Below, piece after piece: positions 1-14,698 of a stretch of DNA of 42,237 nucleotides. The notes below the pieces were generated by a model, which was not told the DNA's origin, did no database searches, and worked only from the letters and a program-made list of their open reading frames with translations. Numbering within the stretch: position 1 is the stretch's first letter; every line of letters starts with the position of its first letter. The position numbers were made by a program, and so were the translations under genes. Source of the DNA: a virus (Duplodnaviria > Heunggongvirae > Uroviricota > Caudoviricetes); IMG/VR virus record IMGVR_UViG_2880361019_000002, positions 1-42,237 of that record. The stretch is one strand, 5' to 3'.

Positions 1-426
1 TCATCGTCCCCTCCCGGTCAGTTCACGGATCAACAGCGTGAGCAGCTCTGGCGATGGATTTTCCAGCGTCATGTTACCGTGACGGAACTCCACCTTGCAG
101 GAGCCGGCACTGACACTGGTCTGAGTGGAAGTGGATAAAGACGGCGCAATGGCCGCCACCGGTTCTTTCTGCTCATCCGGCGTTATTTCTACAGGTAATA
201 ATTCAACGCCAGTGTCAGAAGAGGTCGTTACCTGAAGACGCCGTGATATACGCCCTTCGTTCTGCCAGAGCCTGAGCCATTTGAACAGGAGGTTATCATT
301 GATATCGTGTTCCCGGGCAATACGGGCAACAGAGGCTCCTGGTTGTGATGCCAGTTCCACCATACGAAGTTTGAATTCATTCGAATAGTTTTTACGAGGT
401 TCTTTTCGCCAGTCCTGTAATTCCAT
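1..426 (-). CDS. IS66-family accessory protein (orf1/TnpA-like)
   Basis: 141-aa ORF with the F-K-L/I-x-M-V-E-L...A-R-E-H-x-I-N-D-N-L-L-F-K-W motif shared with the orf1 at 609-1013 but clearly a different family member. Confidence 0.7.
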   Translation of the reverse strand: MELQDWRKEPRKNYSNEFKLRMVELASQPGASVARIAREHDINDNLLFKWLRLWQNEGRISRRLQVTTSSDTGVELLPVEITPDEQKEPVAAIAPSLSTSTQTSVSAGSCKVEFRHGNMTLENPSPELLTLLIRELTGRGR

Positions 427-511
427 ACTTAGATGTCCGTCTATATCAGATGGGCGTCTAAGTTACCAATTTTCGTCTGATGGCTACATACGGCGGTCAG
501 TTTACGCTTAC
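1..511 (-). mobile_element. IS66-family insertion sequence, partial (continues beyond window start)
   Basis: orf1-type accessory gene at 1-426 and a terminus reading GTAAGCG on the minus strand (plus 505-511 CGCTTAC), the typical IS66-family end. Confidence 0.55.
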
Positions 512-608
512 TGACAACTCGATGGCGGTAAGCGTCGTCTCAGCACCGTCTGGCAGATCCTGAAATTCCTGAGAGAATAGTGGACACCAAATATGGTGGA
601 CGCTATCC

Positions 609-1013
609 ATGAAATCATTAACCGCAGTGCGTAAAAAAAGCCCTAATTATCCCGTTGAGTTCAAAATCAAAATGGTTGAACTCTCGCATCGACCAGAGAT
701 CTCCGTAGCGCAACTCGCTCGTGAGCATGGGATCAACGATAATTTGCTGTTCAAGTGGCGCCAGTACTGGCGCGAAGGAAAACTACGTCCTCCTTCAACA
801 ACAGAAAACAACGTGCCTGAGCTGCTCCCGATAACACTTGATGCCGAAGATGTTGTCCCTACAACCTCCCCCCGGTCACAACCTGTAGCTGCTGCGACAC
901 CTGAATCACTCAATATCAGCTGTGAAGTGACGTTCCGGCACGGATCACTCCGTCTGAATGGTGCCATCAGCGAAAATATCCTGAACCTGCTGATACGGGA
1001 GCTCAAACGTTGA
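609..1013 (+). CDS. IS66-family accessory protein orf1 (TnpA-like)
   Basis: 134-aa ORF, helix-turn-helix-like N-terminus, first gene of the IS66 three-gene unit. Confidence 0.8.
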   Translation: MKSLTAVRKKSPNYPVEFKIKMVELSHRPEISVAQLAREHGINDNLLFKWRQYWREGKLRPPSTTENNVPELLPITLDAEDVVPTTSPRSQPVAAATPESLNISCEVTFRHGSLRLNGAISENILNLLIRELKR

Positions 1014-1357
1014 TCCCATTACCATCAGGGACAAAGATCTGGCTGGTCGCTGGCATCACCGATATGAGAAACGGCTTCAACGGCCTGGCGGCAAAGGTGC
1101 AGACGACGCTGAAAGACGATCCGATGTCAGGTCACGTTTTTATCTTCCGTGGGCGTAATGGCAGTCAGGTAAAGCTCCTCTGGTCTACCGGCGATGGACT
1201 GTGTCTGCTGACCAAACGGCTGGAGCGCGGCCGCTTCGCCTGGCCGTCAGCCCGGGATGGCAAAGTGTTCCTCACACCGGCACAGCTGGCGATGCTGCTG
1301 GAAGGTATCGACTGGCGGCAGCCTAAAAGACTGCTTACGTCCCTGACTATGTTGTAA
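1010..1357 (+). CDS. IS66-family orf2 (TnpB-like)
   Basis: 115-aa ORF overlapping orf1 stop (ATGA-type coupling), characteristic small orf2 of IS66 elements. Confidence 0.8.
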   Translation: MIPLPSGTKIWLVAGITDMRNGFNGLAAKVQTTLKDDPMSGHVFIFRGRNGSQVKLLWSTGDGLCLLTKRLERGRFAWPSARDGKVFLTPAQLAMLLEGIDWRQPKRLLTSLTML

Positions 1358-1405
1358 GCCTCTTTATCCTGGTCGACGCTGAATGAGCCTGGTAATATAC
1401 CCGGT

Positions 1406-2944
1406 ATGAGCAGCTCACTTCCTGACGATATCAATGCACTGAAACGTCTCCTTGCCGAACAGGAGGCGCTGAACCGTGCCCTGCAGGAAAAGCTGAACGA
1501 GCGTGAACGCGAAATAGACCATCTGCAGGCACAGCTGGATAAGCTGCGCCGGATGAACTTCGGCAGCCGCTCGGAAAAAGTCTCCCGTCGTATCGCACAG
1601 ATGGAAGCTGACCTGAAGGCACTTCAGAAAGAAAGTGATACCCTTACCGGTCGGGTTGACGACCCGGCCGTGCAGCGCCCGCTGCGTCAAACCCGCACCC
1701 GCAAACCGTTCCCCGAATCACTCCCCCGCGATGAAAAACGGCTGCTGCCGGCAGCGTCATGCTGCCCGGAATGTGGAGGCTCGCTGAGCTATCTGGGTGA
1801 GGATGCCGCCGAACAGCTGGAGCTGATGCGCAGCGCCTTCCGGGTTATCCGGACTGTACGTGAAAAGCATGCCTGTACTCAGTGCGATGCCATCGTGCAG
1901 GCCCCCGCGCCTTCACGGCCCATCGAGCGGGGTATCGCAGGACCGGGGCTGCTGGCCCGCGTGCTGATCTCAAAGTATGCAGAGCACACCCCGCTGTACC
2001 GCCAGTCTGAAATGTACGGCCGCCAGGGCGTGGAGCTGAGTCGTTCACTGCTGTCGGGCTGGGTGGATGCATGCTGCCGGCTACTGTCACCGCTGGAAGA
2101 AGCGCTTCAGGACTATGTGCTGACTGACGGTAAGCTCCATGCTGATGACACGCCTGTCCCGGTGCTGTTGCCAGGCAATAAGAAAACGAAGACCGGGCGG
2201 TTATGGACCTACGTTCGTGACGACCGTAACGCCGGGTCAACGCTGGCGCCGGCGGTGTGGTTCGCTTACAGCCCGGACAGAAAAGGCATCCATCCGCAGA
2301 CCCATCTTGCGGGGTTCAGTGGTGTACTGCAGGCGGATGCATACGCCGGGTTCAACGAGCTGTACCGGGATGGCCGGATAACGGAAGCCGCCTGTTGGGC
2401 TCACGCCCGCCGTAAAATCCACGATGTGCACGTTCGCACCCCGTCAGCCCTGACGGAGGAAGCGCTGAAACGGATCGGCGAACTGTACGCCATCGAGGCA
2501 GAGATAAGGGGAATGACGGCGGAGCAGCGCCTTGCCGAACGTCAGTTGAAAACGAAACCGCTGCTGAAATCCCTGGAAAGCTGGCTGCGTGAAAAGATGA
2601 AAACCCTGTCGCGACACTCAGAACTGGCGAAAGCGTTCGCATACGCCCTGAACCAGTGGCCGGCGCTGACGTACTATGCAGATGATGGCTGGGCTGAGGC
2701 GGACAATAACATCGCTGAAAATGCGTTGCGGATGGTCAGTCTGGGCCGCAAAAACTACCTGTTCTTCGGTTCGGATCATGGAGGAGAGCGGGGAGCGCTG
2801 CTGTACAGCCTGATCGGGACGTGCAAACTGAACGGAGTGGAGCCAGAAAGCTACCTCCGCTATGTCCTTGACGTCATAGCCGACTGGCCGATAAACCGGG
2901 TCGGCGAACTGCTCCCCTGGCGCGTAGCACTGCCGACTGAATAA
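1406..2944 (+). CDS. IS66-family transposase (orf3/TnpC)
   Basis: 512-aa ORF with N-terminal coiled coil/leucine zipper, CxxC...CxxC zinc-finger motif and DDE-type core typical of IS66 transposases. Confidence 0.85.
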
Positions 2945-2981
2945 CACATCCCCGTCAATACGGTTCTTGCTGCACGCTTAC

Positions 2982-4478
2982 GAATTGCCGCACTCTGGTC
3001 TTCCAGTTTCTTATTGACGGTCTGCGTGATTTCATTGCTGACATCCGTAATGGACGTCCTGATTTCAGCCAGGTCAGGCGCAAGCTGACCGTTATCAATC
3101 TGCGTCCACAGCTCCTGAGCCAGATGGGTTTTCCCTATCTCGCCTTTGAAAAAATCCAGATAGCCGGATGCATCATCACTCGGCTGACCAACAGCCTCCA
3201 CGAATGCCGATTTGCCAACGGTGTTCACACTGCGAACGTAAAAATAATAATCATGGCCCGGTTTGATATTGATACTGGCGGCTATCCAGTACAGCGCCGT
3301 ACCAAGATAGCGGGCTGTGGTTTCAACCTGCCTGATATCGGTAATCCGCTTTTCCGAGAACCAGAACTCAAACTGTACCGTCGGATCATAAACCGCAAGA
3401 TGCGGCGTGGCGGTTATCTGAAAATAGCCCGGTGTCAGCTCAATCCGAGACGGCGCTGCCGGTGCGGCAATCCGGAACGATACCGACGCCGGATCGCCCT
3501 GCTGCCCCCGGGCATTTGCCGCCCGGACTGTCAGCCTGTAGTTTCCCAGCGCCAGCTGCCTGAAGCGGTATGTGGTTTCCGTCGTCCGGGCTGTGCTGAC
3601 CAGCCGCTCACTGCCGTCTTCTGCTGTCACGGTCAGACGAAGCAGGAAGCTCACGCCCTTCACCACCTTCGGCGTATCCCAGCGCGCCAGCACCTGATAT
3701 TCCCCGCTGTCTGCGGTGACTTCGGCAGTCAGGTGCTGCACCGCTGGCGGCGTGACACCATTCACCGTGCCGCTCTGGTCGCCGTCAAAGTGCGCCCCGT
3801 TATCCACGATGGCTTCTTTTTCCGGCACGTGCTGCACCGCCGTGATGGCAAAGGTGCCGTCCGTGTTTTCCCGGATGGAGACACAGCGGAACAGGCGACG
3901 ACGCAGTGACGGCAGGGAGAGTCCCCATACACCGTATGTCTCCACACCATCAGGCAGGGTGCTGACCTGTATCCGGTCCGGCGCGGGGTGTGCGGTGATG
4001 TCCACACTCACCGGCTTACCGCTGCCGTTAATCAGGTTCACCGTGGCGGCACCTGTCTCCGGCAGGGTCACCTCACGGTCCAGTGTCAGGGTGCGGCTGG
4101 CGGCATCGATGGACAGGATACGTCCGCCGGTCATGGTCCCGGCATAGTCGTTATCACAGATTTCAATAATGTCACCGGGTGTGTGACGCAGCCCCTGTGA
4201 CCCGAGCGTGAAATCCACCGTCTGCGTTTCCAGCAGTCCGGTCTTTATCACCCACAGCCCGGCACTGTGGGCCTGACCGCGACTGGTGCAACCGAACGCA
4301 TCCATCTTCAGCAGGTTGCGCCCGTAGCGCAGTATGGCTTCCGGGTCTTCCACCAGTTCCGTGGAGGTCTGCCAGCCGTTCTGCGGGTCGGTGTAATTCA
4401 CCTCCACCGCCGTGTGGCGGTCCTTCAGGGCGCTGAAGCTGTAGCGAAACCCCACGCCGTTATCATCCACCACCACAT
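2982..4478 (-). pseudogene. J: Tail tip / host-specificity protein J, central fragment (C-terminal third missing, cut by IS66 end at 2981)
   Basis: Translation matches the central region of lambda gpJ (e.g. [12 protein letters not shown]..., [19 protein letters not shown]...); reading frame runs into the IS66 terminus. Confidence 0.8.
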
Positions 4479-4671
4479 TGCGTATTTTCATGAAAGGAGA
4501 TCACTCAATAACTTCCATCGAGATCGGGTAATAACATTTGAACAGATCGCTGAATAACATCGATGGAGATCACTTTTGACTCATTTTGTTATTCAGTGAT
4601 CTCCATCAATGTTATTGGAACTTCACAGGTGTGTTGATCTGTATCTTTTGCCATTCCGGTAAAGGATACCT

Positions 4672-6213
4672 ATGCCAACAGTTCCAATTTCTATGAGAAA
4701 ACTTAAAGAAATTCTTAGGCTTAAATACGGTGTTGGACTCAGCCATCGACAAATTGGTCGTAGTCTTGCAATCTCCCCTTCCGTTGTATCCAGATATGCT
4801 AATCGGGCGGCTCAACTTGGCATAAAGCAGTGGCCCTTACCTACAGGATGGGATGATACAAAACTAAAACATGCGTTCCTTCAGACCCAGGTTAAGATGA
4901 AGAAGCACTCTCTGCCTGACTGGGCTACAGTACACCGGGAACTGCGTAATAAATGCGTGACGCTGCAGCTACTCTGGGAAGAATACTGTGAGCGTAATCC
5001 AGGCGGTTTTTACAGCTATAACCATTACTGCCGGATGTACCGTGAATGGCTCAAAACCACTTCACCATCAATGCGTCAGGTACATAAAGCTGGCGAAAAA
5101 CTTTTCGTTGATTACTGTGGACCTACCGTTGGCGTTACCGACCCTGAGACCGGAGAAATAAGAACTGCTCAGGTCATCGTAGCTGTTCTCGGGGCATCAA
5201 GTTACACATGGGCAGAGGCCACCTGGTCTCAGCAGCTTGAAGACTGGGTGATGAGTCATGTTCGCTGCTTCCAGTGGTTGGGTGGCGTTCCTGAACTTGT
5301 TGTTCCGGACAATCTGAAAAGCGCCACATCCAGGGCATGTAAGTATGATCCTGACGTTAACCCTACCTACCAGCAGATGCTTGAGCATTATAATGTCGCA
5401 GTTTTGCCTGCGCGGCCACGTAAACCGAAAGATAAAGCCAAAGCTGAAGTTGGCGTTCAGGTTGTTGAACGCTGGATCATGGCCCGAATCAGGCATGAGA
5501 TCTTCTACAGCCTTGCATCGCTTAATCAGCGCATTCGGGAGTTGCTGGAAAGACTGAATAACAAAATAATGCAGAAGTTGGGTTATTCACGTGCAGAACT
5601 CTTCATCCAGCTTGATAAACCCGCACTGAAGCCTCTTCCTGAAGCCAGTTACAGTTACACCCTGGTGAAGAAAGTCAGAGTTCATGCCGATTACCACGTG
5701 GAAATCGACAAACATTACTACTCGGTTCCATGTTCGCTGTTAGGCCAGCAACTGGAAGCATGGATCTCCGGAGAACTGGTAAGACTCTTCAATCAGGGGC
5801 AGGAGGTTGCTGTGCACCCGCGCAAGCGTACTTATGGCTACAGTACCCGCAACGAGCACATGCCTGAAGCTCATCGACAGCATGCCACCTGGACGCCAGA
5901 GCGTCTTCTGGAATGGGCGGGGCACATAGGCAGTGAAACTCATAGTTATGTGCTTCATATACTGAACTCTCGTCCACATCCGGAACAAAGCTATCGCTTC
6001 TGCCTTGGACTCCTGAACCTTCATAAAAAATACAGTAAAGCCAGACTTAATGCAGCATGTGCAAGAGCTCTGAAAACAAAGGTATGGCGTCTGTCAGGTA
6101 TTAAATCGATCCTGGAAAAAGGTCTGGATAAACAACCTGTTCAGGATCCAAAACCAGATCTGTTATCCACGATGGAACACGAAAACGTACGCGGCAGTGA
6201 GTATTACCACTGA
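4672..6213 (+). CDS. istA: IS21-family transposase IstA
   Basis: 513-aa ORF with N-terminal HTH and integrase-core (DDE) region, followed 11 bp later by istB. Confidence 0.8.
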   Translation: MPTVPISMRKLKEILRLKYGVGLSHRQIGRSLAISPSVVSRYANRAAQLGIKQWPLPTGWDDTKLKHAFLQTQVKMKKHSLPDWATVHRELRNKCVTLQLLWEEYCERNPGGFYSYNHYCRMYREWLKTTSPSMRQVHKAGEKLFVDYCGPTVGVTDPETGEIRTAQVIVAVLGASSYTWAEATWSQQLEDWVMSHVRCFQWLGGVPELVVPDNLKSATSRACKYDPDVNPTYQQMLEHYNVAVLPARPRKPKDKAKAEVGVQVVERWIMARIRHEIFYSLASLNQRIRELLERLNNKIMQKLGYSRAELFIQLDKPALKPLPEASYSYTLVKKVRVHADYHVEIDKHYYSVPCSLLGQQLEAWISGELVRLFNQGQEVAVHPRKRTYGYSTRNEHMPEAHRQHATWTPERLLEWAGHIGSETHSYVLHILNSRPHPEQSYRFCLGLLNLHKKYSKARLNAACARALKTKVWRLSGIKSILEKGLDKQPVQDPKPDLLSTMEHENVRGSEYYH

Positions 6214-6224
6214 TACGGGATCCA

Positions 6225-6974
6225 ATGATGAATCATCTTTACGAACAACTGACCGCACTTAAACTCACCGGCTTCCGTGATGCGCTTAAAAAGCAACTTG
6301 CTCAGCCGGGCACATACCAGGAGCTGGGCTTCGAAGAACGCCTGTCATTACTGACAGCAGAAGAACTAACCTGCCGTGAAAACAGGAAGGCAGAGCGTCT
6401 GATCAAACATGCACGGTTCAGACTTAATGCTGAGTTATCAAAGCTGGATTATCGTAACAATAGAGGGCTGGACAGGGCCCTCATCCGTTCACTCAGTCAG
6501 GGAAACTGGTTAACCCTGAAACAAAATATTTTACTGACCGGGGCCACCGGCAGCGGTAAAACGTTCCTGGCATGTGCACTTGGTCATAATGCCTGCCGAC
6601 AGGGATACAAGGTCTACTATTATCGCCTTAAAGCGCTGATGGAACAGTGCTATCAGGGGCATGCTGATGGAAGATACAGCAAACTTTTGACCAGGCTGAA
6701 TAATAGCGATCTGCTGCTTCTGGATGACTGGGGGCTGGAACCTCTCTCATCAGAACAGCGTAGCGACCTGCTGGAAATAGTGGATCTGATGTACCAACGA
6801 GGCTCAATCATCGTAGTGAGCCAGTTGCCGGTGGAAAACTGGTACAAAATGATCGGAGACTCCACACATGCGGATGCCATCCTAGATCGACTGGTTCATG
6901 GCAGTATCAAGATCGAACTTAAAGGAGAATCAATGCGGAAAATACAATCTCCGTTGACCGAAGGAGATCAGTGA
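6225..6974 (+). CDS. istB: IS21-family ATP-binding helper IstB
   Basis: 249-aa ORF with Walker A motif GATGSGKT and DnaA/IstB-like AAA+ core. Confidence 0.85.
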   Translation: MMNHLYEQLTALKLTGFRDALKKQLAQPGTYQELGFEERLSLLTAEELTCRENRKAERLIKHARFRLNAELSKLDYRNNRGLDRALIRSLSQGNWLTLKQNILLTGATGSGKTFLACALGHNACRQGYKVYYYRLKALMEQCYQGHADGRYSKLLTRLNNSDLLLLDDWGLEPLSSEQRSDLLEIVDLMYQRGSIIVVSQLPVENWYKMIGDSTHADAILDRLVHGSIKIELKGESMRKIQSPLTEGDQ

Positions 6975-7059
6975 AGGTAATTTAAAAACGGTTCTGTGAA
7001 AGTGACACGAACCGATCTCCATCGATGTTACTCACCGATCTCCTTCACGGTAATACGCA

Positions 7060-8189
7060 ACCACATCGCAGTTGGTGTACGGCCACACCACATCCGACGG
7101 GCGGTCCTGAACGAACGTCAGCGTCTGGCCGTTCCATACCGGCATACAGCGCATCGCCGAGCAGAAATCACTGAGAACGTCCCACGCCTTACGCTGTTGT
7201 GACAGGTACGCATTAAAGGTCATCCGCGGCTCTGTGCCCCCGAAACCATCCGGGACCGTCTGGTCGCAGTACTGCGCAATGGCATACAGCGCCCATTTGT
7301 CCACATCCGCCGCCCCCAGACGTTTTCCCATGCCATAGCGCGGGTGAGTCAGCATGTCCCACAGGCACCAGGCCGGGTTGTTGCTGTATGCCGGTTTCAG
7401 ACTGCCGTCCCAGATGCCGCTGTAAGTGCGTTTTTCCGGGTCATAGTTTGACGGCACCTGGATGATGCGACCTCGGATATGGTAGTTCACCGTCATCTGC
7501 TGACCGCCAAACTGCTCCGCATCCACCTGCAGCCCCACAATCGCCGTGTTCGGGTAGCACTGTTTCACATCGATGATTTCGGTGTATGACGACCAGAGCG
7601 TCTTATTCTGCAGCTGGTCCGAGGTGCTGTCCGCTGTCTCCCGGACCATCCGGATGTTAAAGGGCCGCTCAGGCAGATTATCCAGAATCACCGACGCCAG
7701 GTACTGTGAGGTGGTCTTGCCGTTAATGGTGACATCCTTTTCCGTCACCCAGTTACCGTTACGCTGCAACTGAATCAGCAGCCGGACAGAAGAGGGATTA
7801 CGGTCGCCCTTTGAGGTGGTCTCCAACAGTGACTGCACCCCGAAGGTGACCCGCAGGCGGTCAATGTTCGCGGATGTAATGGTGCGCGTTACCGGCTTTG
7901 CCTTCGTCACTTCCACGCCCAGTCCGGTTTCAGCTCCGGAGGACTCAAAGCCTTCCGGTGGTGTCTACTCCTGCTCCCCGGCACGCCAGACCGCGGTCAC
8001 ACCGTGTATCACGGGATTACCGTCCGTGTCCGTCAGCGGGGTTTTGTTCACCAGGATACTCTGCAGTCCCTTCACCGGGCCTTCTATCGGTCCCTCACCA
8101 ATCGCATCAATCACACTCATCATCTGCGTGGATTTGAGATTGTCCTTCGCCTCGCGCGGTGTGTGCGCCTTGCCGCCACCTTTGCCCAT
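7060..8189 (-). pseudogene. J: Tail tip / host-specificity protein J, N-terminal fragment with in-frame amber codon
   Basis: Starts MGKGGGKAHTPREAKDNL (lambda J N-terminus); TAG at 7965-7967 replaces the Gln of ...AGEQE-Q-TPPEGF...; frame continues unchanged to the IS21 junction. Confidence 0.8.
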
Positions 8190-8424
8190 TGTCTCACCCT
8201 TTACTGTGATAACTGTTACGCACAAAAACAACAGGCATCCCTGAGGATGCCTGTATCATCACTGAATAAAACTTCTGAATATCTTCACATTTTCACAAAC
8301 TGACTGTGGTGCTAATAATTTCTCTGCGTTAATGTTTTTTGTCGTGACATAAGAATAATTCCTTACACTTAATCTTCGTAACTCTCCCGCAGTTCCGCAA
8401 CTCTGCGGGATTTTTTTATTCTTT

Positions 8425-9105
8425 TTACCCCTGCCGCCCGATAACCACGACCTTTCCGCCCCCGCCTTCATTACGGGTGCTGATGTCCTGGGATATCCGT
8501 CGTGAACCAACCAGCATTTCCCCGTAAGGCACCGGCATCGGGTTACCCTGGGCAATCATATTGTCCAGTGACGAAAAATACGTGTTCTGTTTACCGTTAT
8601 CCGTTGCGCGGTAATCCGGTGTTTTTGCCTTCGGTGCCAGCATCTGGGCCACACCGCCCAGAATCATACTGGCACCCAGTGAAAACAGCATCGTGGTGGC
8701 AGAAAAACCACCGGCACTCAGGGCTGTACCCCATAACGCCATCGAGCCTCCGGCAGTGAAGAAAGAGCCCACGATGGCTGCCGCCCCCAGCACAATCTGC
8801 AGTCCGCCCTTTCCGGCTCCGGCCAGTCGCGGCACAATGTGGATGACCGCCCCCTCACCCAGAGGTTCGTGAAGACGGGCGTACACCGCCTCCGGTGCCG
8901 TGTCCTCACCGCGAATACGTATCTGGTACCAGCCTTCGTTCATCTGACGGCGGAATCCCGGCACCTGTAACGACAGCGCCCGGATGGCTTCCGCTGCCGT
9001 GTTCACGTACAGGCTGAGGCGGCGGCCAAATCGTTGTAAATCCCCGTGAAGGCAGATGCGTGCCAGTGGCGGTGACGCCAGACAGAATGCGTTCGTCGTT
9101 GCCAT
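8425..9105 (-). CDS. I: Tail assembly protein I
   Basis: 226-aa ORF closely matching lambda gpI (ARICLHGDLQRFGRR..., C-terminal hydrophobic/Gly-rich region); overlaps the 3-prime end of K. Confidence 0.85.
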   Translation of the reverse strand: MATTNAFCLASPPLARICLHGDLQRFGRRLSLYVNTAAEAIRALSLQVPGFRRQMNEGWYQIRIRGEDTAPEAVYARLHEPLGEGAVIHIVPRLAGAGKGGLQIVLGAAAIVGSFFTAGGSMALWGTALSAGGFSATTMLFSLGASMILGGVAQMLAPKAKTPDYRATDNGKQNTYFSSLDNMIAQGNPMPVPYGEMLVGSRRISQDISTRNEGGGGKVVVIGRQG

Positions 9106-9746
9106 TTTTCGGAATACCTCTCCCGTTTACTCAGTTGTTCAGGCAGATGGTGAAGCAGTTCACCGTTGCCGCAGTAAATGGCGGCATGATTGGCCACCGA
9201 TGCGCCAAAGCAGCACAGCAGGATATCGCCCGCCTGTGCAGAGGACAGGGGCACCCGGTAAAAGCCTGTGACCGCCATATTGTCCAGGTAAAGGTTCTGA
9301 CCGTTGCGCCACCAGTCATCCTCACGCTCAAAATCCGGCATATCAATTCCCGCCAGATGGTAGGCATCCCGGAACAGCGTGTAACAGTCCGTCACCCCGT
9401 GCTCAAAGCGCCGTCCTGTCAGATGTGGCACACAGCGGAATTTATGAATTTCCCCCCGGCAGACCAGCCACCAGGACAGTGCACTTTTTATCTGCAGCCG
9501 CCGGTCGGCCTCGCTCAGCCAGGGCAGACCACCGGGATGACTGTGGACCAGTGCCACAATCTCCCCCTGCATCTCTGCCCGCAGCCAGTCTTCCGGTGCA
9601 ATACGAAAATACGCCTCCGGCTCTGCAGAGATATTCACACAAGGGATATACCGCTCCCCCTCCGGCGTTCTCACCACGAAGCCGCACGACTCCGCAGGCA
9701 CACACCGCCGGGTGTGTGCCAGAATCGCTGATTCTGTCTGTGTCAT
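9003..9746 (-). CDS. K: Tail assembly protein K (JAB/MPN plus NlpC/P60-like)
   Basis: Start taken at internal MTQTESAILAH... matching the lambda gpK N-terminus; HSHP metalloprotease-like motif present. Confidence 0.8.
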   Translation of the reverse strand: MTQTESAILAHTRRCVPAESCGFVVRTPEGERYIPCVNISAEPEAYFRIAPEDWLRAEMQGEIVALVHSHPGGLPWLSEADRRLQIKSALSWWLVCRGEIHKFRCVPHLTGRRFEHGVTDCYTLFRDAYHLAGIDMPDFEREDDWWRNGQNLYLDNMAVTGFYRVPLSSAQAGDILLCCFGASVANHAAIYCGNGELLHHLPEQLSKRERYSEKWQRRTHSVWRHRHWHASAFTGIYNDLAAASACT

Positions 9747-9756
9747 AAACCGGGAT

Positions 9757-10455
9757 TTACTGCGAAAGTTTATTAATGGAAAGGAAACCGCCAAAATTAG
9801 CCACCATGCCGCGCATCTCACACCCGCGCATGCACTTGCTGCATCTGTCCTTACGGATATCGGTGGTGGGTTTATCGAACTCATCCGCCACAGCCCCGCC
9901 CGTGTAACCACACTCATCAGAGCGGTAGGTCCACATACAGGTGTTCGCCAGCATGATACGACCGGGAAACAGCGCCCCGTCCGTCTCGGTCGGTGTGGCC
10001 AGCACAAACGAGGCCGTCATGGCTGTCAGCTGCGACATCTGCTCCACCACCCAGCGGTCGCTCAGCTCCTGCTCCGGGTCCGCTTCCGGATTGCCCGCCA
10101 CAAAATTCACCGCATCCAGAAAACGGGCATACACCCGGCGGCGGACCACCGTGGCCCCCACCAGGCTCTGCAGGTCCTCCGCCATTCCGGTGACAAGGCC
10201 AAACAGATTGGACACCGTCAGCGACGGTCTGGCACTGCTGCCCTTCCCGTTCATCTCAAAGCCGCTGCCGTCAATCGGGTACGCCTGATATTCACGCCCC
10301 TGCCAGGTGACCGGCTCCCCTTTTTCATTCAGTTCATTGCAGAAAAAATAGCGCTCACCGCCCTGCACCGTCAGGTCAATTTCCCAGAGCACCACCCGCG
10401 GTGACTGTTCTGATTTAACCGACTCGTTCAGGCTTTCTTCATGAATATTCTGCAT
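9757..10455 (-). CDS. L: Minor tail protein L
   Basis: 232-aa ORF nearly colinear with lambda gpL (VVLWEIDLT...GERYFFCNE..., C-terminal Cys cluster). Confidence 0.9.
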   Translation of the reverse strand: MQNIHEESLNESVKSEQSPRVVLWEIDLTVQGGERYFFCNELNEKGEPVTWQGREYQAYPIDGSGFEMNGKGSSARPSLTVSNLFGLVTGMAEDLQSLVGATVVRRRVYARFLDAVNFVAGNPEADPEQELSDRWVVEQMSQLTAMTASFVLATPTETDGALFPGRIMLANTCMWTYRSDECGYTGGAVADEFDKPTTDIRKDRCSKCMRGCEMRGMVANFGGFLSINKLSQ

Positions 10456-10796
10456 CAGTTCACCACCTGCTCAATCGTACAGCTGAAATCACTGTACCGG
10501 GCGTTATCCGTGACGCTCCACTCCCGGCACACCACCCTCACCGTCCGGTTATGTTTCGGCGGTCGCCACAAAAAGGCACGGTAACCACCATGCCAGGATA
10601 AAAATTCATCCAGCCAGCGCCGGGTTGACTCATCCGTCACCCGGAACACCGCCTGAAACGTCTTCAGTTGAGGATTCAGCCCTGTGGGGCGACGCTGTTC
10701 ATAACCGTCACCAAACCGTACCCTCGCCACCGACGGTTTCTCACTCACCTGCATCCCTTCACGCGGGACCAGATGCAGCGTTTTTATCTCAGCCAC
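10455..10796 (-). CDS. M: Minor tail protein M
   Basis: 113-aa ORF in gpM position and size, stop overlapping L start. Confidence 0.8.
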   Translation of the reverse strand: MAEIKTLHLVPREGMQVSEKPSVARVRFGDGYEQRRPTGLNPQLKTFQAVFRVTDESTRRWLDEFLSWHGGYRAFLWRPPKHNRTVRVVCREWSVTDNARYSDFSCTIEQVVN

Positions 10797-11391
10797 TCAG
10801 CATTCCTCCGTCACGTCGCATGGACAGCATCACCGCCTGCACCCGCTGGTCAATCAGTTGCACAAGGCTGCCTGCCGCCTCCGGCCCTATCTGGCCATTA
10901 GTCCCGTCATTCTGAATGGCGATATGGTAGACCGGGGAATACACCAGACCCGCACTGCCGTACATACTACCCACCGCGCGCACACCCAGCGAGCCATCCG
11001 CCGCCCGCGTCAGAGGCATAATGGCTTCAGGTCCGGCCTCCCCCATCAGCCCGGCCCCTTTTGCAAAGGCAAAGTACGTGGGCGTATCCACAATACTGTT
11101 GCTGTACGCACTCAGGTTTGCCGAGGTATACACGCCGCCTTTTGCATTGGCCACCGCCCCGCCCAGCCAGTCACCAATGCTGCCGAGAAATCCTCCCGCA
11201 CCGGACATACCGTTTGCCGCCGTCTTAATTCCGTTGACAATCGCGGCATTCATAAGAACTTTTGATATTTCCTGCAGCACTGATGAGGCCCAGCTGCGCC
11301 ATTCCACTTTATTTCCGTTCAGCATCTCCGTGATGTTATTCACCATCCCTGAGATCCCCTCCGTCGCAAGCTGTGCTGCCTGTGAGGCGTG
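10789..11391 (-). pseudogene. H: Tail tape-measure protein H, C-terminal remnant (5-prime part replaced by truncated IS1)
   Basis: Gly/Ala-rich C-terminal tape-measure-like sequence directly upstream of M; homology to IS1 stops immediately after the insA stop at about 11391. Confidence 0.65.
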
Positions 11392-11667
11392 TTACCGACT
11401 GCGGCCTGAGTTTTTTAAGTGACGTAAAATCGTGTTGAGGCCAACGCCCATAATGCGGGCTGTTGCCCGGCATCCAACGCCATTCATGGCCATATCAATG
11501 ATTTTCTGGTGCGTACCGGGTTGAGAAGCGGTGTAAGTGAACTGCAGTTGCCATGTTTTACGGCAGTGAGAGCAGAGATAGCGCTGATGTCCGGCGGTGC
11601 TTTTGCCGTTACGCACCACCCCGTCAGTAGCTGAACAGGAGGGACAGCTGATAGAAACAGAAGCCAC
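11392..11667 (-). CDS. insA: IS1 InsA
   Basis: 91-aa ORF identical in translation to the insA ORF of the second IS1 copy ([18 protein letters not shown]...). Confidence 0.9.
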
Positions 11668-11722
11668 TGGAGCACCTCAAAAACACCATCATACACTAAA
11701 TCAGTAAGTTGGCAGCATCACC
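11392..11722 (-). mobile_element. IS1, truncated copy (IRL plus insA only)
   Basis: IS1 left inverted repeat GGTGATGCTGCCAACTTACTGAT (minus strand, ending at 11722) and insA; sequence departs from the intact IS1 copy (22572-23339) right after the insA stop. Confidence 0.85.
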
Positions 11723-12445
11723 GACATCCCGGGCGTACTGCAGTTTCTGTCTGAACACCCCGGCAGGCGGTTCATTCGACTGGGTGGTTGTGTACACCAC
11801 AAATCCTTCCGGACGGGAGGCAAGCCCGCCGATGGCTTCACGTAGCATGTCTTCCGCTTTGTACTGCTTGCCAAACAGCCACAGTTCATCAATCAGTGTC
11901 CCCACGGACTTGATACCGGACACCGTATTCGGATCGGCTGCCACCACCTTCAGGGTGGTGTCCGTCACCCGATGGGTGATGGTCCGGATATGTGTCTACA
12001 CCTGACAGAGGTCATCCAGATCATCGTCCCGTCGTACCATATCCCTGGCAGGGTTGAAGGCGTTAGCCGCCACCTCCACGGTCGGGGCCAGAATGGTGTA
12101 GCCCGCCGCCTGCCGCCAGTTCAGTAACAGCGCCGTCATCATGATCCCCGCGGCCAGCGTGGACTTACTGTTTTTCTTGGGGATAAGGATAAACACTTCC
12201 TTGATATGGCGAACACCGGTCTGCGCATCGTAGGAGCCAAACAGGGCCGCCACCAGGTCAAACACCCACGGTGCACAGGACTCCCCGAATGTCGGGCTAC
12301 CCGGTGCATCCACAATTCGCAGTTGTTTAAAAATCGCCAGTGCATGTGCAGCCAGGTCCGGATAAATCGGAGCCGGAATAATCGACAGCCCCTTTTTCAG
12401 GCGCTCTGCCCAGTCCGGACATGCCGTGCTCCATACAGGTATCAT
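11723..12445 (-). pseudogene. Terminase large subunit, N-terminal remnant with in-frame amber codon, truncated by IS1
   Basis: Walker-A-like KKNSKST motif; start overlaps terS stop; TAG at 11996-11998 is in frame with the downstream continuation; reading frame ends inside the IS1 IRL. Confidence 0.65.
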
Positions 12446-13005
12446 CCGCTTTCCTCATTCTGGTTATTCACCACCAGCCGGGGAGGTGGTGGCACCGCAA
12501 AACGGTTAGCCGCTTTTTTCGCGGCATCACCTTTTGCCGATTTTTTACCGGCATCGCCTTTTTTATGGTGTGTGAACTGCGCCAGTCGCCAGGCCGCATC
12601 CAGTGCCAGTTTCGGGTCAATTATCAGGTTTTCCACCAGGATCTGCCCCATAGCTTTCACCGGATCGGGAAGACCATCCTCCATATATTCAATACCATGA
12701 GATATCACCGCGGGCGGAGGCATCTCCGGATTGTTTTCGTCCGGCTGTGGTATTGCAGCCACCTCACGGCGACGGGGTTTATCCTCCTGCTCTGATTTTT
12801 TCTGCCGGTAAACAGGAACCTCATCCACCTCCACCGTTTCGCACTGTTTACGGGCTATAAACGCGAGCACCTCCGGATCTTTTGCCAGCTGCGAGCCTTT
12901 AACCCTGGCGGTCTTCGCCGAATAACCGGCGGCAATGGCTGACGCTGTTTTGTTTTTCCCGGACATGAGCGCCAGCGCAAATTTTCGTTTTTGCGTTGTC
13001 AGCAC
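12442..13005 (-). CDS. Terminase small subunit
   Basis: 187-aa ORF with N-terminal HTH-like region and Lys/Ala-rich C-terminus, immediately upstream of and overlapping the large-subunit start. Confidence 0.6.
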   Translation of the reverse strand: MLTTQKRKFALALMSGKNKTASAIAAGYSAKTARVKGSQLAKDPEVLAFIARKQCETVEVDEVPVYRQKKSEQEDKPRRREVAAIPQPDENNPEMPPPAVISHGIEYMEDGLPDPVKAMGQILVENLIIDPKLALDAAWRLAQFTHHKKGDAGKKSAKGDAAKKAANRFAVPPPPRLVVNNQNEESG

Positions 13006-13039
13006 AGCCTCCTCCCGGGTCCATAACGCACTCAGCCGG

Positions 13040-13260
13040 GTATGGTTCAGCCCATTTTTCCCGGCGTCTCATGCCGCAAATGTTAACTGCTGCCTGGTTA
13101 ACATTTGCTGAAAAAGCCAGTTAACATTTTTTTCGCACAACAAACTGAATAATAAAGATAAAAACCGAAAAAATGCCCAGGCAGCCAGTTAACATGTTAA
13201 CTGGCCTGAAACAGGAATTTTTTCTCTGCATGAGACGGGGGGCGGTGTCCGGGGCGATCG
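13040..13260. promoter_or_regulatory. Putative DNA packaging site region (cos/pac-like) between HNH endonuclease and terminase small subunit
   Basis: Non-coding gap containing perfect palindromes built on GTTAAC (AAATGTTAAC...GTTAACATTT; GCCAGTTAACATGTTAACTGGC) and a G/C-rich run; HNH-terS architecture typical of cos phages. Confidence 0.3.
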
Positions 13261-13294
13261 TTTTTTTCGCCGGATGATCCCCCCCCGGGTCGGG

Positions 13295-13660
13295 TTACAG
13301 TCCGATGATGTCGTCCGCTCTGCCACTACCTCTGAACACCTCCGGCAGCATCGGGTCCGGCATACCACTCACCGCTTCACGAGCAGACTTTTGTCGATGG
13401 CATTCGGTACAGAGCGTCCAGAGATTCGTCTCCTCATTACCACCACCGAACTGAAGTGCAATTCGGTGATCGAGTTCACTGTCACAGAGGTCAACCACAC
13501 GACCACAGAGACAGCACTGCCCGGCATCCCTCAGCCAGATATGACGCTTGAGGGAAACCCGGGCACTGCCACTGACACGACGCTGTTCCCCCTTCAGAAT
13601 ATTCACCCGTCGGGTATTCAGTGTTTTGATTCTGCTCTGGAGTGTACGAAGCTCAGCCAT
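13295..13660 (-). CDS. HNH endonuclease (terminase-associated)
   Basis: 121-aa ORF with Cys pairs and DHRIALQFGG...NLWTLCTECHRQK HNH motif. Confidence 0.8.
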   Translation of the reverse strand: MAELRTLQSRIKTLNTRRVNILKGEQRRVSGSARVSLKRHIWLRDAGQCCLCGRVVDLCDSELDHRIALQFGGGNEETNLWTLCTECHRQKSAREAVSGMPDPMLPEVFRGSGRADDIIGL

Positions 13661-13701
13661 GTAAAATCCCCGTCATATAACTTGTCACCAGAGGAAAGAA
13701 A

Positions 13702-13902
13702 ATGTCATCGAAAAACCGGACCCGCAGAACCACAACCCGCAATATCCGTTTCCCCAATCACATAATTGAACAAATCAACATAGCCCTTGAGCATAAAGGG
13801 TCCGGTAACTTTTCAGCGTGGGTTATTGAAGCCTGCAGGAGAAGGCTGGCAACAGATGCAACGCATCTGCGCCCGGCCAGCATGACAAATAACGAGAAAT
13901 GA
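13702..13902 (+). CDS. Ribbon-helix-helix (Arc/MetJ-like) DNA-binding protein
   Basis: 66-aa ORF, RBS AGGAAAG upstream; pattern R-F-P-x-x-I-x-E-x-I...G-x-x-N-F-S-A-W-V-I-E resembles Arc-type RHH. Confidence 0.45.
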   Translation: MSSKNRTRRTTTRNIRFPNHIIEQINIALEHKGSGNFSAWVIEACRRRLATDATHLRPASMTNNEK

Positions 13903-14033
13903 ACGTTCGGTTACAGGAGCAGGTACCCACTGTCCTCCAACAATATTTCATCTTCATATCCGACGGAACAAGACTTACCCTGCCGGGATGTACAGAATAA
14001 CAACAGAGTGATAATTAATTTCTGATGAAATAA

Positions 14034-14375
14034 TCAGGGTGCAGAAGGACTAAAGATAAACGTTTTCTTCACGCCTTTACACGGCCTGTCCTTCTCAAAT
14101 CTCCATTTTGCCATCGCCTTTACAACCTGCTCATCAAACAAATGGTGCGGCTCTGAACGGATAAACTCAATTCGGGTGACAGTACCATCAGCACCAATAT
14201 CAAACTTCACATCAACCCGTCCCTTTATATAATTTGCCGCTGCATAGGCCGGATATTGTGGTAATGCCTTAACCAACTGTCGGGGCATATCTGTTTTATG
14301 TTGCGTACAGCCCATAACCAGAGAAGACAACAAAATAATTAACGGAAGATTTCTTTTCATTTTCATTCCCGGCAC
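14034..14375 (-). CDS. Lipoprotein with TonB C-terminal-like domain
   Basis: Signal peptide plus lipobox LVMGC; C-terminal YP...G.V...F.I...G....I...S....FD..VV.A...WRF pattern of TonB_C domains; true start may be MKMK at about 14366. Confidence 0.55.
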   Translation of the reverse strand: MPGMKMKRNLPLIILLSSLVMGCTQHKTDMPRQLVKALPQYPAYAAANYIKGRVDVKFDIGADGTVTRIEFIRSEPHHLFDEQVVKAMAKWRFEKDRPCKGVKKTFIFSPSAP

Positions 14376-14698
14376 AGATAAGAATAAGTCTTATTCTAAC
14401 AATGCCACCCTGTCGGTCATCAATCCTCTGCTTAATGGCAACGACAATTATCCGACTTAAATCACAAATCAGACACATGACATAACAGAGCTTGCGAGGT
14501 AACACATCGTCCGGTTTCTTCCACCATCGCACCGGACCAGCGACCATGAGGGGACAACGCCGCGCTCCGTTAACGCGGTAAACCCCGGTGTGTATCGTTT
14601 TTGATTATCCCCGCACACTCGCGCAGAGGAGTCTCCCTGTCGGGCTGCGGTCTCTGTTAATGAGGGAATACAGCGACGATACGGCGCATCAGCAAAAC

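Follow-up and report, generated by a model that had tools for sequence, protein, structure and literature searches.

How does a gene for a phage tail tip come to persist in a bacterial chromosome as three separate pieces, and should those pieces still be regarded as a gene? This question is raised by J, the host-specificity gene of a lambdoid prophage carried on a viral record of 42,237 nucleotides (IMG/VR record IMGVR_UViG_2880361019_000002, positions 1 to 42,237), the whole of which is referred to here as the window. Positions 1-14491 match the chromosome of Escherichia albertii 2010C-3449 (CP034212.1; GCA_003864075.1) with zero mismatches. This strain is listed as a human isolate from 2010, belonging to ST5390, with a chromosome of 4,923,641 bp (PMC10673567). 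The copy of J in the window is very probably the pseudogenised tail-tip gene of a defective lambdoid prophage, disrupted by three independent lesions: an amber codon close to its start, the insertion of an IS21-family insertion sequence (IS), ISEc12, and the loss of its 3′ quarter at a junction with an IS66-family element, ISEc22. An earlier interpretation made from the sequence without database searches (the sequence-only reading) had proposed that J was inactivated in these three ways, and all three lesions proved to be real and to lie at the positions it gave. Judged from its coding sequence, any single one of the three would abolish a functional tail tip.

The identity of the gene is evident from its remaining fragments. 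J begins with an ATG at 8189-8187 on the minus strand and follows homologues of M, L, K and I, recognised by their Phage_min_tail, Phage_tail_L, NLPC_P60 and Lambda_tail_I domains. The first fragment (7965-8189, minus strand) comprises codons 1-74 and the amber codon, TAG, at 7967-7965; the second (7067-7964, minus strand) holds codons 76-374 and the first base of codon 375, in the frame of codons 1-74; the third (2982-4478, minus strand) holds codons 375-873 and ends abruptly at the right end of ISEc22. These fragments scored 142.9, 663.2 and 991.4 bits, respectively, against the lambda_TipJ profile (NCBIfam NF049904; length 1163), covering profile positions 1-74, 93-373 (from the 283 residues tested) and 377-871, and the curated cut-off for this family is 1950 bits. 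A full-length, single-frame match to lambda_TipJ is thus missing, the frame being interrupted by an in-frame TAG, split by an IS and deprived of its 3′ quarter, and the window copy is a J pseudogene rather than a J gene.

In-silico excision of the inserted element together with one copy of its flanking repeat (deletion of 4479-7066) restores a continuous frame of 2620 nt, or 873 codons, in which the only stop is at codon 75. The protein encoded by this restored frame aligns with residues 1-836 of lambda J (NP_040600.1) at 80% identity with zero gaps, and with residues 1-871 of 1158-residue E. coli gpJ proteins at 87-88% identity. The closest E. coli allele, here called L011, is 98.8% identical across the first 1.1 kb, and the excised junction matches its uninterrupted J at 60 of 60 nucleotides; the empty-site J sequence at the target reads ...CAACTGCGATGTGGTGGTGGATG.... 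The proposal that the pre-insertion sequence of J could be reconstructed by removing the element and one repeat was therefore borne out, both in the recovered frame and in the ungapped lambda alignment.

The element that splits J is an intact ISEc12. Members of the IS21 family carry istA, encoding a DDE transposase, followed by istB, encoding an AAA+ helper ATPase; their ends have the form 5′-TG...CA-3′ and they duplicate 4-8 bp of target. The element in the window spans 4479-7059 on the plus strand, exactly 2581 bp, and its ends, TGCGTATT...AATACGCA, are of the TG...CA type. E. coli elements that carry the RefSeq annotation 'IS21-like element ISEc12 family' match it at 99.7-99.9% identity. 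Its two genes, istA (4672-6213) and istB (6228-6974, in an open reading frame (ORF) that opens at 6225), encode an IstA of 513 residues and an IstB of 248 residues that are identical in sequence to those of the E. coli copies; they score 310.5 bits on NF033546 (cut-off 160) and 270 bits on NF038214 (cut-off 200), respectively, and the Pfam domains rve and IstB_IS21 are recorded for them. The terminal inverted repeats are imperfect, with the first eight of eight bases matching, and seven of the nine GAGATC/GATCTC motifs fall within ~125 bp of the two ends, as expected for IS21-family termini. A length of 2581 bp and the same first and last 15 bases are also found in each of six other ISEc12 copies inserted independently in E. 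coli, so that the termini fixed from the repeat and the TG...CA ends in the sequence-only reading coincide with those of elements inserted elsewhere.

On either side of ISEc12 stands a perfect copy of ACCACAT, at 4472-4478 on the left and 7060-7066 on the right, a match with a chance probability of ~6e-5. Four of the other ISEc12 copies are flanked by duplications of 5 bp, one by 7 bp (GCCACAT) and one by 8 bp with a single mismatch, whilst a seventh copy has none. The repeat in the window might accordingly be taken for a 5-bp duplication extended by a chance match, but this was rejected, as only the removal of 7 bp yields both an open frame and the 60/60 identity to the empty site; the frame restored in this way also establishes that the 7-bp duplication is genuine. 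ISEc12 thus entered codon 375 by ordinary transposition, duplicating 7 bp of its target, and the preserved duplication implies that no rearrangement has taken place at this copy since insertion. Both 7-bp duplications share CCACAT (ACCACAT here, and GCCACAT at 306-312 and 2894-2900 of E. coli locus L005), and several of the 5-bp duplications are CCAC- or ACCA-like, which hints at a target preference. The J/ISEc12 junction was not found in the GTDB species representatives, no record among the complete E. coli genomes covers the J/ISEc12 arrangement, and ORFs spanning the J/ISEc12 and ISEc12/J/ISEc22 junctions occur in one assembly only in the public collection. The insertion therefore appears to be strain-specific. 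The clean match to the empty site adds one more documented target for ISEc12 and indicates that this element makes 7-bp as well as 5-bp duplications.

The distal lesion is of a different character. The last base of J, at 2982, is the first of codon 874; there the gene abuts an ISEc22 element that spans 528-2981 on the plus strand. This element is 2454 bp long (GTAAGCGT...ACGCTTAC), with terminal inverted repeats that give GTAAGCG at its left end and CGCTTAC at its right end (...GCACGCTTAC). It carries tnpA (609-1013; 82.8 bits on NF047595, cut-off 74), tnpB (1010-1357; 119.9 bits on NF033819, cut-off 50) and tnpC (1406-2944; 467.8 bits on NF033517, cut-off 180), the three genes of an IS66-family element, and mismatches three E. 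coli copies with an ISEc22-family annotation at 6-7 positions. Thirteen other ISEc22 copies have the same length and ends. The TnpC protein is widespread, with exact matches in 7,837 index blocks. The alignment of J stops at residue 871 of the 1158-residue E. coli proteins, lambda_TipJ positions 872-1163 are absent, and no J C-terminal coding sequence was found anywhere in the window. The C-terminal region of lambda J, which lies within the missing part, binds the receptor. The sequence-only reading had described a C-terminal third replaced by an IS66-family element ending at 2981. The right end of the element is indeed at 2981 and J is in effect replaced there; the part lost, however, amounts to ~25% (285-292 residues), and the junction is chimeric rather than a simple replacement.

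This chimeric nature is apparent from the sequences flanking the element. All 13 of the other ISEc22 copies, at eleven distinct sites, are bordered by perfect 8-bp target duplications, whereas the window copy has none, with CGATGGCG on its left and GAATTGCC on its right. On the left, the 16 bp at 512-527 (TGACAACTCGATGGCG) derive from a remnant of an IS3-family transposase (OrfB), and in E. coli L004 the same stretch runs uninterrupted into 'DNSMAESINGLYKAEV...', an integrase-core remnant. Further left, positions 1-511 contain the end of a different IS66-family element on the minus strand, with a tnpA of 141 residues at 426-1 (87.6 bits on NF047595) and a terminus, GTAAGCGTAAAC, that reads on the minus strand from 511. 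Many E. coli genomes carry the corresponding island sequence with 100% identity over the whole of 1-527, and there the IS3 remnant is uninterrupted. The chromosome upstream of the window start (L013, 14066-21632) carries genes for a GTPase, a cah-type autotransporter and a dynamin-family protein. This E. albertii and many E. coli, O55:H7 and others included, have the end of this cah/GTPase/dynamin island in identical (100%) form, and in E. coli it adjoins the aerobactin (iut/iuc) genes; this identity indicates that the island has been shared recently between the two species.

The missing duplication is read as the result of a rearrangement that followed the insertion of a bona fide ISEc22, and not as evidence against membership of the family. 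Since every other copy compared retains its duplication, the junction most reasonably arose through a secondary event rather than a simple insertion. It may have been an intramolecular transposition, or else two ISEc22 elements, in J and in the IS3 remnant of the island, may have undergone homologous recombination. By either route the prophage would have had its end, the side tail fibre genes, lom and the 3′ quarter of J removed or displaced.

We lean slightly towards recombination between an ISEc22 copy in J, flanked by duplicated GAATTGCC, and a second copy in the IS3 remnant, flanked by duplicated CGATGGCG, with either a deletion or an inversion as the outcome. For both flanks of the window element a genuine site without an insertion is known from other loci (J in L011 and L015; for the IS3 remnant, L004), other ISEc22 copies all have 8-bp duplications, and the element is able to enter J independently: a separate insertion in J of E. 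coli O111:H8 strain 7-55 62A (L025, 5001-7454), at a position equivalent to 3015-3022 of the window, lies 33 bp from the window junction. Against this, neither a second ISEc22 copy nor a reciprocal junction is present within the window. If two copies did recombine, the reciprocal junctions would be expected to join ...GAATTGCC to GTAAGCGTCGTC, and GCACGCTTAC to CGATGGCGGAGAGCATC; in the orientation of the window, these would read ...GAATTGCC followed by GTAAGCGTCGTCTCAGC (the 3′ part of J meeting the left end of ISEc22) and ...TTGCTGCACGCTTAC followed by CGATGGCGGAGAGCATCAATGG (the right end of ISEc22 meeting the IS3-family remnant). An alternative scenario is that an ISEc22 already resident in the island transposed intramolecularly into J in one step, with the intervening DNA deleted or inverted and a single copy left without a duplication. 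This would produce the same pattern of flanks, with no duplication and one flank from each locus, and the window sequence alone cannot separate it from recombination; to our knowledge, however, IS66-family elements are not documented to make adjacent deletions at high frequency, and we regard this route as possible but rather unlikely. Under recombination between two copies as under direct transposition, the missing duplication marks an IS-mediated join between the prophage and the cah/GTPase/dynamin island, which is useful for reconstructing the genome structure of E. albertii ST5390. The ~12 distinct ISEc22 sites seen lie, in about half of cases, in lambdoid tail genes or intergenic regions (K, J, the J-I spacer, the tape measure gene and near the major tail gene), and the element may have a target or niche bias towards the lambdoid tail module.

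The third lesion lies at codon 75. Where both lambda J and E. coli L011 have CAG, encoding Gln75, the window has TAG at 7967-7965, as the sequence-only reading had noted for lambda; a single C-to-T transition has converted the glutamine codon to amber. The identical TAG is present in a second assembly, GCA_030821115.1 (locus L015, 6223-6225), in which the remainder of J is an IS-free, full 1158-codon frame. The two alleles are otherwise diverged, with ~5% nucleotide differences over the first 1.8 kb and 14 differences, all synonymous, within codons 1-74, and the sole identical patch is one of 87 nt around the TAG. In 5,426 complete E. coli genomes, a 61-mer carrying the TAG allele matched 3,355 places, none of them perfectly, and the allele was not found in 50,697 phage records, IMG/VR, the GTDB representatives or the JGI metagenomes. 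The presence of the same TAG on two alleles would be explained either by gene conversion of a short patch from one prophage to another or by codon 75 having been hit twice. A deamination hotspot at a Dcm site (CCWGG), considered as a cause of recurrent C-to-T change, was rejected from the sequence context, GAGCAGAC. Also rejected was the notion that most exact matches to the 74-residue J product represent amber alleles, these coming from draft contigs cut off at J nt 222-224, where the sequence is the wild-type CA..; only L015 is a real amber allele. Many draft assemblies (e.g. L016-L023) break at this point, and 82 index blocks contain the same 74-residue truncated product, which suggests that a long repeat common to co-resident prophages starts nearby.

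These observations invite a broader interpretation, in which amber 75 moves between co-resident or successive lambdoid prophages by short-patch conversion or arises recurrently and, together with a possible preference of ISEc22 for the tail module, reflects a recurrent and possibly selected silencing of the tail tip; at present this appears improbable. A very small likelihood attaches to the view that one or more of the lesions are artefacts of assembly or sequencing, through a misjoin across repeated IS copies or a base error that created the TAG. Although IS copies are repeats and classic points of misassembly, and no matching arrangement occurs in the RefSeq complete E. coli set, the record is a finished chromosome of 4.92 Mb, a misjoin would not yield the perfect duplication of ISEc12 and a perfect match to its empty site, and a separate assembly has the TAG as well. 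Very improbable too is the suggestion that the amber codon is tolerated or functional, through suppression, read-through or selection of an 'off' allele, rather than a random inactivating hit: it occurs on two J backgrounds and the L015 copy is otherwise clean, but the allele is missing from each of the collections searched, the 87-nt patch is compatible with a short gene-conversion tract and the window J is destroyed twice more downstream.

Several points nevertheless weigh against the interpretation of J as the casualty of three well-defined, independent lesions. The 7-bp duplication differs from the 5 bp usual for ISEc12, being unusual but not unique among the copies compared, and the names ISEc12 and ISEc22 rest on the RefSeq annotation of near-identical copies. 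The 3′ part of J was sought within the window only, so that a deletion and an inversion to elsewhere in the chromosome are both compatible with the junction. Given that TAG also occurs on a second, diverged allele, the nonsense mutation does not have the history of a simple private event. Finally, the inactivation of J is predicted from its sequence.

The remainder of the prophage is also damaged. Nearly the whole of it is contained in the window, lying on the minus strand with J at its near end and the integrase and early genes at the far end, and its late and tail genes are collinear with those of an E. coli prophage (L012). At 11391-11722 lies a 332-bp fragment of IS1 whose IRL end is at 11722; it links the tape-measure gene, represented by its C-terminal 185 codons, directly to terL, represented by its N-terminal 149 codons (the flanks being 10789-11390 and 11723-12445). 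Compared with the L012 prophage, ~11.4 kb is absent, comprising genes for the tail shaft, connector, portal and capsid. Elsewhere, a complete IS1 of 768 bp at 22572-23339, bordered by a perfect 9-bp duplication, TACGGCTTG, interrupts a homologue of ninG (recombination protein NinG). The J lesions and the 11.4-kb deletion associated with IS1 would together leave the prophage unable to form particles, and their occurrence side by side places the J lesions within a general decay of the prophage. IS insertion with target duplication, IS-mediated deletion or inversion and nonsense mutation of morphogenesis genes are textbook routes of prophage decay; that of J is ordinary decay by way of known mobile elements, already familiar and with no departure from known mechanisms.

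The consequences are therefore mainly for annotation, with little significance beyond it. J should be marked as a pseudogene and the prophage scored as a non-inducible remnant. Two ORFs called across the fragments, one of 543 residues (2860-4491, minus strand) that starts at an ATG in the left end of ISEc12 and stops in the right end of ISEc22, and another of 294 residues (7032-7916, minus strand) that ends within the right end of ISEc12, are chimeric pseudogene fragments and not genes; they should be treated as gene-calling artefacts that run into IS ends.

The locus has precedents at each of these levels. The gene itself has its counterpart in J of phage lambda, with 80% ungapped identity over 836 residues and the same place after the homologues of I, K, L and M, but in the window copy Gln75 has become an amber codon, codon 375 is interrupted and nothing remains beyond codon 873. 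The ISEc12 insertion resembles that reported in tssM of E. coli ST131 clade C/H30, which is accompanied by a 5-bp duplication, ACTGC (PMC10711316). The same IS is involved, the copies in ST131 genomes being 99.8% identical, and each time a large structural gene of a contractile or tail-like machine has been split into two recognisable fragments by a simple insertion that duplicated its target; here, in contrast, the duplication is of 7 bp (ACCACAT), the target is a prophage gene, the host is E. albertii and the insertion occurs in one assembly only. A counterpart to the ISEc22 junction is found in gpJ of E. coli O111:H8 strain 7-55 62A (NZ_CP077506.1), where the element has the same orientation relative to J and differs by 6 mismatches in 2454 bp; there, however, neither half of J has been lost and an 8-bp duplication, TGACGGTC, is present, whereas the window has lost the distal half and the duplication and the other end of its IS abuts a genomic island. 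More generally, the Rac, Qin and DLP12 prophages of E. coli K-12 and the Sp prophages of O157:H7 Sakai, the latter with IS-associated defects, are defective lambdoid elements. Like the prophage described here, they have been worn down by ISs, through both insertions and associated deletions, and by point mutations in morphogenesis genes, and parts of them persist in the chromosome. The present case differs in its host, E. albertii, and in the elements involved, ISEc12, ISEc22 and IS1, but the mechanism is no different.

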